5,243 nt of DNA, taken from the IMG/VR virus record IMGVR_UViG_2734482541_000012, one strand, 5' to 3'. Shown here one piece after another: positions 680 to 5,243 of the stretch. This DNA is from a virus. Lineage: Duplodnaviria > Heunggongvirae > Uroviricota > Caudoviricetes. Positions within the stretch are counted from its first letter, which is position 1; every line of letters begins with the position of its first letter. Both the position numbers and the translations under genes were made by a program. The notes under the pieces were generated by a model. The model made no database searches and was not told the origin of the DNA. It was given only the letters and a program-made list of their open reading frames with translations.

Positions 680-1694
680 ATGACAGAGACAGAATCAGCG
701 ATTCTGGCGCACGCCCGGCGATGTGCGCCAGCGGAGTCGTGCGGCTTCGTGGTGAGAACGCCGGAGGGGGAAAGATATTTTCCCTGCGTGAATATTTCCG
801 GTGAGCCGGAGGATTATTTCCGGATGGCTCCGGAGGACTGGCTGCAGGCAGAAATGCAGGGTGAGATTGTGGCGCTGGTCCACAGCCACCCCGGTGGTCT
901 GCCCTGGCTGAGTGAGGCTGACCGGCGGCTGCAGGTGCAGAGTGATTTGCCGTGGTTGCTGGTCTGCCGGGGGGCGATTCATAAGTTCCGCTGTGTGCCG
1001 CATCTCACCGGGCGGCGCTTTGAGCACGGGGTGACGGACTGTTACACGCTGTTCCGGGATGCTTATCATCTGGCGGGGATTGAGATGCCGAATTTTCATC
1101 GCGGGGATGACTGGTGGCGTCACGGTCAGAATCTCTATCTGGATAATCTGGAGGCCACAGGGCTGTATCAGGTGCCGTTGTCATCAGCACAACCGGGCGA
1201 TGTGCTGCTGTGCTGTTTTGGTTCATCGGTGCCGAATCATGCCGCCATTTACTGTGGTGACGGCGAGCTGCTGCACCATATTCCNNNNNNNNNNNNNNNN
1301 NNNNNNNNNNNNNNNNNNNNNNNNNNNNNNNNNNNNNNNNNNNNNNNNNNNTGAGATGCCGGATTTTCATCGCGGGGATGACTGGTGGCGTCACGGTCAG
1401 AATCTCTATCTGGATAATCTGGAGGCCACAGGGCTGTATCAGGTGCCGTTGTCAGCGGCGCAGCCGGGCGATGTGCTGCTGTGCTGTTTTGGTTCATCGG
1501 TGCCGAATCATGCCGCCATTTACTGTGGTGACGGCGAGCTGCTGCACCATATTCCTGAACAACTGAGCAAACGAGAGAGGTATACCGACAAATGGCAGCG
1601 ACGCACACACTCCCTCTGGCGTCACCGGGCATGGCACGCATCTGCCTTTACGGGGATTTGCAACGATTTGGCCGCCGCATCGACCTTCGTGTGA
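680..1694 (+). CDS. K: Tail assembly protein K (lambda gpK-like; JAB/MPN metallopeptidase N-terminal domain plus NlpC/P60 C-terminal domain); interrupted by an N-gap with duplicated flanks, so the true length is probably ~248 codons
   Basis: ATG at 680-682, 4 nt after the L stop. Translation MTETESAILAHARRCAPAESCGFVV...ALVHSHPGGLPWLSEADRR contains a JAMM motif H-S-H-x7-S-xx-D (nt 881-922) and an upstream E-x-C-G element. A papain-like Cys sits in GVTDCYTLFRDAYH (Cys codon 1040-1042) with downstream NHAAIYCGDGELLHH. The ORF enters the N-run at 1285 in frame 2 and resumes after the duplicated segment in frame 0, ending at TGA 1692-1694. Joining 680..1284 to 1556..1694 gives one continuous ~248-aa protein. 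Confidence 0.85.
1081..1284 (+). repeat. Direct repeat copy 1 (204 nt), immediately upstream of the N-gap, inside K
   Basis: Aligns base for base with 1352..1555 at an offset of 271 nt. Five mismatches, at copy-1 positions 1091, 1184, 1186, 1189 and 1192. Confidence 0.95.
1285..1351. other. Run of 67 N (assembly or scaffold gap, or masked sequence) inside K
   Basis: Directly visible as unbroken N characters; flanked by the duplicated 204-nt segments. Confidence 0.99.
1352..1555 (+). repeat. Direct repeat copy 2 (204 nt), immediately downstream of the N-gap, inside K
   Basis: Near-identical to 1081..1284. Differences give N to D (aat/gat) and SSAQ to SAAQ (tcatcagcacaa versus tcagcggcgcag) in the encoded peptide. 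Confidence 0.95.
1574..1580 (+). promoter_or_regulatory. Shine-Dalgarno-like AGAGAGG for I (internal to K)
   Basis: Purine-rich element 11 nt upstream of the I ATG at 1592. It sits inside the K coding sequence, consistent with overlapping-gene translation initiation. Confidence 0.4.
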
Positions 1695-2263
1695 AAACGG
1701 GTGCCGAAGCCATCCGGGCGATGGCCACACAGCTCCCTGCGTTTCGTCAGAAGCTGAGCGACGGCTGGTATCAGGTGCGTATTGCCGGGCAGGATGTTAG
1801 CACGTCCGGATTAACGGCACAGTTACATGAGGCTCTGCCTGACGGCGCTGTGATTCATATTGTTCCCAGAGTCGCCGGGGCCAAGTCAGGTGGTGTATTC
1901 CAGATTGTCCTGGGAGCAGCCGCCATTGCCGGATCATTCTTTACCGCCGGAGCCACCCTTGCAGCATGGGGGGCTGCCATTGGTGCCGGTGGTATGACCG
2001 GCATTCTGTTTTCTCTCGGTGCCAGTATGGTGCTCGGCGGTGTGGCTCAGATGCTGGCACCGAAAGCCAGAACTCCCCGCACACAGACAACGGATAACGG
2101 TAAGCAGAACACCTATTTCTCCTCACTGGATAACATGGTTGCCCAGGGCAATGTTATGCCTGTTCTGTATGGTGAAATGCGCGTGGGGTCACGTGTGGTA
2201 TCTCAGGAGATCAGCACGGCAGACGAAGGGGACGGTGGTCAGGTTGTGGTGATTGGTCGCTGA
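1592..2263 (+). CDS. I: Tail assembly protein I (lambda gpI-like)
   Basis: Complete 223-aa ORF, ATG 1592-1594 to TGA 2261-2263. Translation MAATHTLPLASPGMARICLYGDLQRFGRRIDLRVKTGAEAIRAMATQLPAFRQKLSDGWYQVRIAG... matches lambda gpI as I recall it, including the same length. A purine-rich Shine-Dalgarno-like AGAGAGG lies at 1574-1580. The gene overlaps the 3' end of K by 103 nt in a different frame. Confidence 0.9.
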   Translation: MAATHTLPLASPGMARICLYGDLQRFGRRIDLRVKTGAEAIRAMATQLPAFRQKLSDGWYQVRIAGQDVSTSGLTAQLHEALPDGAVIHIVPRVAGAKSGGVFQIVLGAAAIAGSFFTAGATLAAWGAAIGAGGMTGILFSLGASMVLGGVAQMLAPKARTPRTQTTDNGKQNTYFSSLDNMVAQGNVMPVLYGEMRVGSRVVSQEISTADEGDGGQVVVIGR

Positions 2264-2285
2264 TGCAAAATGTTTTATGTGAAAT

Positions 2286-2310
2286 CGCCTCCGGGCGGTT
2301 TTATCGTTTA
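2286..2310 (+). terminator. Weak hairpin followed by a T-rich tract in the I-J intergenic region (possible attenuator or RNA structure; not a convincing intrinsic terminator)
   Basis: CGCC (2286-2289) can pair with GGCG (2294-2297) around a TCCG loop, followed by TTTTATCGTTTA. The stem is only 4 bp, so stability is doubtful. Confidence 0.2.
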
Positions 2311-2311
2311 T

Positions 2312-2315
2312 GGAG
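2312..2315 (+). promoter_or_regulatory. Shine-Dalgarno-like GGAG for J
   Basis: GGAG lies 8 nt upstream of the J ATG at 2324. Confidence 0.55.
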
Positions 2316-2323
2316 CATGACGA

Positions 2324-5243
2324 ATGGGTAAAGGCAGCAGTAAGGGGCATACCCCGCGCGAAGCGAAGGACAACCTGAAGTCCACGCAGCTGCTGAGTGT
2401 GATCGATGCCATCAGCGAAGGGCCGGTTGAAGGTCCGGTGGATGGATTAAAAAGCGTGCTGCTGAACAGTACGCCGGTGCTGGACAGTGAGGGGAATACC
2501 AACATCTCCGGCGTCACGGTGGTGTTCCGGGCAGGTGAGCAGGAGCAGTCACCGCCGGAGGGATTTGAATCCTCCGGCTCCGAGACGGTGCTGGGTACGG
2601 AAGTGAAATATGACACGCCGATCACCCGGACCATCACGTCGGCAAACATTGACCGACTGCGTTTTACCTTCGGTGTACAGGCACTGGTGGAAACCACCTC
2701 AAAGGGTGACCGGAATCCGTCGGAAGTCCGCCTGCTGGTTCAGATACAGCGTAACGGTGGCTGGGTGACGGAAAAAGACATCACCATTAAGGGCAAAACC
2801 ACCTCGCAGTATCTGGCCTCGGTGGTGGTGGATAACCTGCCGCCGCGCCCGTTTAATATCCGGATGCGCAGAATGACGCCGGACAGCACCACNNNNNNNN
2901 NNNNNNNNNNNNNNNNNNNNNNNNNNGTCATACACCGAAATCATCGATGTGAAACAGTGCTACCCGAACACGGCACTGGTCGGCGTACAGGTGGATTCGG
3001 AGCAGTTCGGCAGCCAGCAGGTGAGCCGTAATTATCATCTTCGCGGGCGCATTCTGCAGGTGCCGTCGAACTATAATCCGCAGACGCGGCAATACAGCGG
3101 TATCTGGGACGGAACGTTAAAACCGGCATACAGCAACAACATGGCCTGGTGTCTGTGGGATATGCTGACCCATCCGCGCTATGGCATGGGGAAACGTCTT
3201 GGTGCGGCAGATGTGGATAAATGGGCGCTGTATGTCATCGGCCAGTACTGTGACCAGTCGGTGCCGGACGGCTTTGGCAGCACGGAGCCGCGCATCACCT
3301 GTAATGCCTGGCTGACCACACAGCGCAAGGCGTGGGATGTGCTCAGTGATTTCTGCTCGGCGATGCGCTGTATGCCGGTATGGAACGGGCAGACGCTGAC
3401 GTTCGTGCAGGACCGACAGTCGGATAAGGTGTGGGCCTATAACCGCAGTAATGTGGTGATGCCGGATGATGGCGCGCCGTTCCGCTACAGTTTCAGCGCC
3501 CTGAAAGACCGCCATAATGCCGTTGAGGTGAACTGGATTGACCCGGATAACGGCTGGGAGACGGCGACAGAGCTTGTGGAGGATACGCAGGCCATTGTCC
3601 GTTACGGTCGTAACGTCACGAAGATGGATGCCTTTGGCTGTACCAGCCGGGGGCAGGCACACCGCGCCGGGCTGTGGCTGATTAAAACGGAACTGCTGGA
3701 GACGCAGACCGTGGATTTCAGCGTGGGTGCTGAAGGGCTTCGTCATGTACCGGGCGATGTCATTGAAATCTGCGATGATGACTATGCCGGTATCCGCACC
3801 GGCGGGCGCGTGCTGGCGGTGAACAGCCAGACCCGGACGCTGACGCTCGACCGTGAAATCACGCTGCCATCCTCCGGCACCACGCTGATAAGCCTGGTTG
3901 ACGGGCAGGGGAATCCGGTCAGCGTGGAGGTCCAGTCCGTCACCGACGGCGTGAAGGTAAAAGTGAGCCGTGTTCCTGACGGTGTTGCTGAATACAGCGT
4001 GTGGGGGCTGAAGCTGCCGACGCTGCACCAGCGATTGTTCCGCTGCGTGAGTATCCGTGAGAACGACGACGGCACGTATGCCATCACCGCCGTGCAGCAT
4101 GTGCCGGAAAAAGAAGCCATCGTGGATAACGGGGCGCACTTTGACGGCGACCAGAGCGGCACGGTGAATGGTGTCACGCCGCCAGCGGTGCAGCACCTGA
4201 CTGCCGAAGTCACCGCAGACAGCGGGGAATATCAGGTGCTGGCGCGCTGGGACACGCCGAAGGTGGTGAAGGGCGTGAGCTTCCTGCTCCGTCTGACCGT
4301 AACAGCGGATGACGGCAGTGAGCGGCTGGTCAGCACGGCCCGGACGACGGAAACCACTTACCGCTTCACACAACTGGCGCTGGGGAACTACAGGCTGACA
4401 GTCCGGGCAGTAAATGCGTGGGGGCAGCAGGGCGATCCGGCGTCGGTATCGTTCCGGATTGCCGCACCGGCAGCGCTGTCGCGGATTGAGCTGACGCCGG
4501 GCTATTTTCAGATAACCGCCACGCCGCATCTTGCGGTTTATGATCCGACGGTACAGTTTGAGTTCTGGTTCTCGGAAAAGCGGATTGCGGATATCAGGCA
4601 GGTTGAAACCACAGCACGCTATCTTGGCACGGCGCTGTACTGGATAGCCGCCAGTATCAATATCAAACCGGGCCATGATTATTACTTTTATATCCGCAGT
4701 GTGAACACCGTTGGCAAATCGGCATTCGTGGAGGCTGTTGGTCAGCCGAGTGATGATGCATCCGGTTATCTGGATTTTTTCAAAGGCGAGATAGGGAAAA
4801 CCCATCTGGCTCAGGAGCTGTGGACGCAGATTGATAACGGTCAGCTTGCGCCTGACCTGGCTGAAATCAGGACGTCCATTACGGATGTCAGCAATGAAAT
4901 CACGCAGACCGTCAATAAGAAACTGGAAGACCAGAGTGCGGCAATTCAGCAGATACAGAAGGTTCAGGTTGATACAAATAATAACCTGAACAGCATGTGG
5001 GCTGTGAAGCTGCAGCAGATGCAGGACGGACGCCTTTATATCGCGGGTATTGGTGCCGGTATTGAGAACACCCCTGACGGCATGCAGAGTCAGGTGCTGC
5101 TGGCGGCGGACAGGATTGCGATGGTTAATCCTGCGAATGGCAACACAAAACCGATGTTTGTTGGTCAGGGCGATCAGATATTCATGAACGACGTGTTCCT
5201 GAAACGCCTGACGGCCCCCACCATTACCAGCGGTGGAAATCCA
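2324..5243 (+). CDS. J: Central tail fibre / host specificity protein J (lambda gpJ-like), 3'-partial; contains an internal N-gap at 2893..2926
   Basis: ATG 2324-2326 preceded by GGAG at 2312-2315. N-terminus [75 protein letters not shown]... matches lambda gpJ as I recall it. After the gap the frame changes from 2 to 0 and then reads without a stop to the last base (...[21 protein letters not shown]), which I checked codon by codon. The C-terminal receptor-binding part lies beyond the window. Confidence 0.93.
2893..2926. other. Run of 34 N (assembly gap or masked sequence) inside J
   Basis: Directly visible. The J reading frame is frame 2 before the run and frame 0 after it, so the N count is a placeholder, not the true length. 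Confidence 0.99.

Follow-up and report, generated by a model that had tools for sequence, protein, structure and literature searches.

Among the errors described in genome assemblies are 'duplicated overlapping contigs' (Kelley and Salzberg, 2010, PMC2864568) and heterotype false duplications, in which false allelic copies are separated by an assembly gap (Ko et al., 2022, PMC9516828). The locus analyzed here shares with this class that the facing ends of neighboring contigs align with high but imperfect identity, that a gap lies between the copies, that the copies carry real allelic differences, and that a gene model is corrupted, which in this case has left gene K split and frameshifted. The locus is part of the tail-tip module of a lambda-like phage or prophage, with the gene order L-K-I-J, and occupies a window of 5,243 nt (IMG/VR record IMGVR_UViG_2734482541_000012), by which we mean the whole stretch of DNA that was analyzed.

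The tail-tip module and its repeated K segment

The window consists of three assembly pieces: a left piece (contig A, 1-1284), a middle piece (contig B, 1352-2892) and a right piece (2927-5243), and all of its genes are on the plus strand. Gene L (1-675) lies on contig A and has its 5' end cut by the window start; its product matches Pfam family Phage_tail_L (E = 3.5e-101), and the RefSeq annotation under the gene L match is 'phage minor tail protein L'. Gene K is present in two parts, of which the first (680-1284; 605 nt, with an ATG at 680) is on contig A and encodes the Prok-JAB domain and the first part of an NlpC/P60 domain, and the second (1352-1694) is on contig B and ends with the stop codon TGA at 1692-1694. 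Gene I (1592-2263; Pfam Lambda_tail_I, tail assembly) encodes a protein of 223 aa when read from the ATG at 1592, and gene J (2324-5243; tip attachment), whose product contains the Pfam domains FNIII-A_GpJ, Phage-tail_3, Ig_J, Ig_J_second and Phage_Tail_Tip, is broken by a second run of Ns and cut by the window end. Judging from the succession of a Prok-JAB/MPN and an NlpC/P60 domain and from the gene order L-K-I-J, which is the same in the related loci L001, L002, L177 and L178, K is a lambda gpK-type tail tip assembly protein.

Gene I occurs in two annotated forms. The form beginning at the ATG at 1592 overlaps K by 103 nt and is the one found in the public protein collection; the alternative start, a GTG at 1691, yields a protein of 190 aa whose gene has a 4-nt overlap with the K stop, and this is the form of RefSeq relatives. 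A separate observation concerns L178 (GCA_013942225.1, AAUYHQ010000006.1), where, at 957-4330, the Mu-type genes com and mom (Zn_ribbon_Com, Mom) are immediately followed by a tape-measure gene that is shorter than in L177 (797 vs 853 aa), and then by the same L-K-I-J module; this arrangement looks like an unusual module junction.

Among complete E. coli genomes the best matches to the window have 97-98% identity, and among phages about 96.5%. Because the exact 223-aa gpI protein is recorded in 605 blocks of the public collection, yet complete E. coli genomes reach an identity of at most about 98% (97.2-97.5% at best for 1352-5243), the host lineage appears to be common among drafts and absent from finished E. 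coli genomes, and could be Shigella or another close relative.

The first run of Ns (67 N, 1285-1351) is directly adjoined on both sides by the same segment of K: copy 1 (1081-1284, plus strand) is the suffix of contig A, and copy 2 (1352-1555, plus strand) is the prefix of contig B. A preliminary description of this DNA had noted a near-identical 204-nt duplication with five mismatches around an N gap, and both its coordinates and its mismatches were exact on recheck: within the window, the copies match at 199 of 204 positions (97.5%). The next best repeat in the window is a 25-nt pair with 76% identity, such that the 204-nt pair is the sole substantial repeat and chance can be excluded as its source. 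The repeated stretch corresponds to K residues 135-202, within the NlpC/P60 domain. From copy 1 to copy 2, an A>G change (1091/1362) replaces Asn by Asp (N138D) and a T>G change (1184/1455) replaces Ser by Ala (S169A), as had been read earlier (N to D; SSAQ to SAAQ), and the other three changes, A>G at 1186, 1189 and 1192, are all synonymous. Over the five sites, copy 1 thus has the allele A/T-A-A-A (Asn138, Ser169) and copy 2 the allele G/G-G-G-G (Asp138, Ala169).

Read literally, this arrangement would be a real partial tandem duplication in K, with both 204-nt copies on one molecule and real sequence between them, produced by unequal or illegitimate recombination between different K alleles and leaving K disrupted, as in a decaying prophage. 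Formally, a 271-nt period with unknown bases hidden under the Ns would agree with the sequence as written, and short tandem repeats are where short-read assemblers break. However, the start-to-start distance of 271 nt is not a multiple of 3 and throws the second copy out of the K frame, with the other tail genes intact. Moreover, contig B begins exactly in the K register with no junction sequence to its left, and a real duplication would require the assembler to have lost the junction exactly at the repeat edge. We regard such a duplication as extremely unlikely, and give equally little credence to its more specific version, in which co-resident lambdoid prophages recombined unequally and the draft assembly contains the resulting hybrid K with a partial NlpC/P60 duplication.

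Two other candidates were tried and rejected. An insertion element under the Ns was dismissed since transposition does not account for a 'target duplication' that is 204 nt long and contains allelic differences, and a k-mer size of k = 93, which would account for the end of contig A (1284 = 1192 + 92), was dropped because the start of contig B breaks the same rule.

Single-copy K genes in related loci

We searched IMG/VR, the GTDB species genomes and JGI/ENA metagenomes for the repeated segment with a degenerate 200-nt exact pattern in which the five variable sites were written as R or K. The pattern matched 60 loci (33 in IMG/VR, one GTDB genome contig and 26 metagenome contigs), and a 50-nt core pattern led to a further 114 loci being fetched, for a total of 174 pattern-matched loci. 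None of the 176 related loci that carry the segment has a second copy of it within the fetched DNA, and with the 200-nt pattern we found no IMG/VR, GTDB or JGI/ENA record that holds both copies or the runs of Ns. In all 58 of the 58 loci with flanks, the segment is preceded by GG(G/A)ATTGAG and directly followed by TGAACAACTGAG, and the relatives run straight from ...CATATTCC to TGAACAACTGAGC..., with nothing between. The structure seen in the window is thus absent from its relatives and does not keep the K frame, and the earlier judgment that a tandem duplication inside the NlpC/P60 domain is much less likely is borne out both by the out-of-frame 271-nt period and by the lack of a second copy in any of these 176 loci.

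The length of K in relatives points the same way. In every gene inspected (from two RefSeq E. coli genomes and two NCBI drafts), K comprises 247 codons plus a stop, and RefSeq annotates the 744-bp E. coli gene as encoding a 247-aa 'C40 family peptidase'. With the window collapsed, in either of the two possible ways, K has the same size (744 bp; 247 aa plus stop), and in its product Pfam recognizes Prok-JAB at residues 4-98 (E = 3.9e-14) and NLPC_P60 at residues 111-224 (E = 2.5e-12), in line with the proposal of the preliminary description that the true K is a single ORF of about 248 codons.

Among the loci with an exact 200-nt match was a contig (L036; JAEWTL010000010.1, 19,905 nt) from a metagenome-assembled genome labeled 'Bacillota bacterium', which bears an Escherichia-type lambdoid tail module and whose presence in that bin is probably due to mis-binning or contamination. 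Two further contigs, L005 (IMGVR_UViG_2751185964_000009) and L015 (IMGVR_UViG_2751185967_000011), begin as whole contigs at the equivalent of window position 1085, and assemblies therefore seem to break repeatedly at this point in K, 4 nt from the equivalent of the contig B start.

Two K alleles and the lineages of their flanks

Both copies exactly match natural haplotypes. Written over the five variable sites, the most frequent haplotype among the 60 exact-pattern loci is GGGGG (40 loci), which equals copy 2, followed by GTAAA (11 loci), ATAAA (6 loci), which equals copy 1, AGGGG (2 loci) and GGGAG (1 locus); the ATAAA and GGGGG loci each carry the segment as a single copy. The view that the window holds two slightly different K alleles is therefore upheld, with 6 and 40 public loci representing the two. 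In the pattern-matched loci the four clustered sites are nearly always TAAA or GGGG, with GGAG as the other common form. Given the haplotype counts among the 60 loci, the four clustered changes constitute a linked natural polymorphism and not scattered errors, and the differences between the copies would, on this evidence from sequence comparison, be genuine variants between two widespread haplotypes as opposed to random errors.

These alleles are also abundant in finished genomes: as judged by allele-specific 51-mers, 1,966 of 5,426 complete E. coli genomes contain the TAAA form and 2,329 the GGGG form. At least nine complete E. coli chromosomes, counted as those present in both top-60 lists of 51-mer matches, carry both alleles at separate loci, with distances of 61 kb to 3.8 Mb between them; they include NZ_AP018784.2 (at 2,816,845 and 2,877,738), NZ_CP023844.1, NZ_CP033096.1 and NZ_CP027544.1. 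Similarly, IMG isolate 2547132417 has two separate prophage regions, one of which bears a segment identical to copy 2 and the other a segment of the TAAA type. Because L-K segments occur at a median of three and at up to 15 places per E. coli genome, a sample containing both alleles is the normal situation.

Each side of the gap is linked to a lineage of its own. Contig A agrees with the IMG/VR contig L018 at 99.4% over 25-1284 and without a single mismatch over 600-1284, and the 5' part of K is accordingly of the L018-type haplotype; compared with contig B, L018 departs at the five sites and again from 1636 on, and its identity over 1352-2892 is 95.1%. The right side, by contrast, follows L177 (NCBI GCA_014387165.1), which we reached via the exact 223-aa gpI protein and which is 100% identical over 2927-5243 and 99.6% identical over 1352-2892, placing the 3' part of K in the L177/L049-type haplotype. 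Over 1-1284, L177 is 97.4% identical to the window, with 25 mismatches over 680-1284, and 18 of the K differences fall within 680-1066, the first at 727 and the last at 1066. The other GGGGG-type loci L049, L059 and L060 have the same linkage pattern as L177, and each lineage (L018 or L177) is only 95-97% identical to the side opposite its own. The only differences from L177 over 1352-5243 are four substitutions in J (2707, 2711, 2722 and 2728), which leave the J protein identical to that of L177, and positions 1373 and 1375, which lie 22-24 nt into contig B and at which the window agrees with L018 and not with L177.

In the interval that is covered doubly, the two contigs thus carry different haplotypes, each agreeing with its own outer flank, which indicates two templates and not the duplication of one template. 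This also weighs against a real tandem duplication: the copies are not derived from one another (all five differences are haplotype differences) but represent two pre-existing haplotypes with different flank lineages. We scanned IMG/VR for loci that combine contig-A-type sequence at 950-1070 with contig-B-type sequence at 1630-1665 and obtained a single match, L179, which is unlike contig B downstream. Since the flanks are linked in this way and the only hybrid match diverges downstream, we favor a chimeric scaffold, in which L and the 5' part of K probably come from one prophage and the 3' part of K, I and J from another.

It is alternatively possible, though on balance doubtful, that the duplication is an artifact but all three contigs belong to one mosaic prophage, whose K is L018-like in its 5' part and L177-like in its 3' part, and that reads from elsewhere, either a second prophage or a co-cultured strain, brought the other allele into one contig end. 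The gene order after merging would in that case be correct, and only the allele in 1081-1284 would be uncertain. Recombinant haplotypes within the segment do exist (GTAAA in 11 loci and AGGGG in 2), the L018-type bases of contig B at 1373 and 1375 are what would be expected from a nearby crossover or a mixed consensus, and the scaffolder did join the two contigs. Against this, each copy stays in perfect linkage with the flank beside it for hundreds of bases, and we found no public locus with both flanks, L179 in IMG/VR being the one that departs from contig B downstream; a single mosaic prophage is hence less likely than a chimeric scaffold.

Contig ends from one locus would overlap by 204 nt, and contig ends from two prophages would not be adjacent at all. 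The preliminary description held that two alleles of the same K region had been scaffolded end to end instead of being merged. This reading is supported, with the refinement that contig A appears to belong to an L018-like lineage and the contigs to its right to an L177-like one, which does not look like a pair of alleles of one locus awaiting a simple merger. If the scaffold joins two prophages, as is probable, merging the copies would produce a hybrid K.

Gap lengths, repair and comparison with known systems

The lengths of the runs of Ns are demonstrably not literal. The second gap (34 N, 2893-2926) lies inside J, has no flanking duplication and stands for 30 real bases: in L002, L019 and L177, exactly 30 nt separate its flanks, and the 30 nt in L177 (7302-7331) are AGACCAGCTGCAGAACAAAACGCTCTGGTC. 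As written, the 34 Ns frameshift J, and because they replace 30 nt of the relatives and break the gene, the lengths of the N runs are unreliable; the first gap (1285-1351), likewise, is a scaffold gap and not 67 real bases. The product of about 620 bp that the preliminary description had expected from PCR across K if the duplication were real is consequently not to be taken to the base.

The two gaps differ in the size of their errors. The stated distance of the first (+67) is 271 nt from the overlap (-204), and that of the second is off by only 4 nt. This weighs against the artifact reading, as a scaffolder that estimates distances well would not be expected to make the error of the first. 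The nearness of the second gap to the truth (34 vs 30) is a point in favor of a real duplication, as it implies that the scaffolder's distances were not wildly wrong everywhere. It has also to be considered that the runs of Ns might be masked foreign sequence, such as a sequencing adapter removed at submission, through which the join was made. The argument for this idea is purely numerical: 34 and 67 (33 + 34) coincide with the usual Illumina adapter read-through lengths, and both depart from the customary gap lengths, for example 10 or 100. Masking would leave unexplained why the same 204 nt, with two alleles, are at the joined ends, so that the two-prophage explanation would still be needed, and we consider it very unlikely.

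With the simplest repair, in which 1285-1555 (271 nt) are deleted and the 34 Ns are replaced with the 30 nt of L177, both anomalies of the window vanish and all four tail genes become normal. The repaired window has 4,968 nt, with an intact K of 247 aa and a J that is open for 972 codons and whose protein is identical to J of L177; in phage mEp460_4F5 the equivalent span likewise measures 4,968 nt. Coordinates shift by 271 nt after 1284 and by 275 nt after 2926, so the earlier warning that the K model and all downstream coordinates are unreliable was well placed.

We are therefore highly confident that the duplication is false and, as far as can be told from sequence, would result from scaffolding, end to end, overlapping contigs that carry two K alleles. 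The facing contig ends align at 199 of 204 positions, and the gap between the copies has an untrustworthy length (67 N, next to another run in which 34 N stand for 30 nt). As for the order of events within the assembler and scaffolder, we infer that the sample contained at least two lambda-like prophages or phage variants with near-identical L-K-I-J modules, and that these tail modules would have caused the short-read assembly to fragment into 1-1284, 1352-2892 and 2927-5243. The last 204 nt of contig A and the first 204 nt of contig B would then be the same stretch of K in the alleles of different prophages. Because the sequence downstream is nearly the same in the two prophages, read pairs could link the contig ending in the K of one to the contig starting in the K of the other, and because the overlap is 97.5% and not 100% identical, it would have escaped merging. 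The contigs would have been placed one after the other, the gap written between them having an estimated or residual size, and no DNA molecule would carry a 271-nt repeat unit.

As deposited, the window is misleading: K looks split and frameshifted and J looks frameshifted, and automatic annotation would be led to report pseudogenes, or a peptidase domain that is 'duplicated', although the lambdoid tail module is normal and intact. Because it probably mixes two prophages, the scaffold is unsuited to serve as a single phage haplotype for typing, for inferring host range from J or for recombination analysis, and the region should be split or re-assembled and not simply merged. This is an ordinary assembly artifact in a well-known gene module, of practical value only and implying no new biology.

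Like lambda K, the K of the window lies between L and I-J and has the two-domain architecture, and once collapsed it has the 247 aa of its RefSeq relatives; in DNA sequence it is 96-99% identical to numerous E. coli prophages and phages, among them mEp460, phage 21 and phi458. After removal of the artifact there is no biological difference, the two alleles in the window being distinguished only by N138D and S169A. With respect to the assembly errors described in PMC2864568 and PMC9516828, the difference is in the source of the copies: those cases involve the two haplotypes of a diploid genome, whereas the copies here would be paralogous prophage copies or co-existing phage variants. Because the sample is a haploid bacterium or phage, the join, unlike those in the diploid cases, may connect two loci and not two alleles of one.
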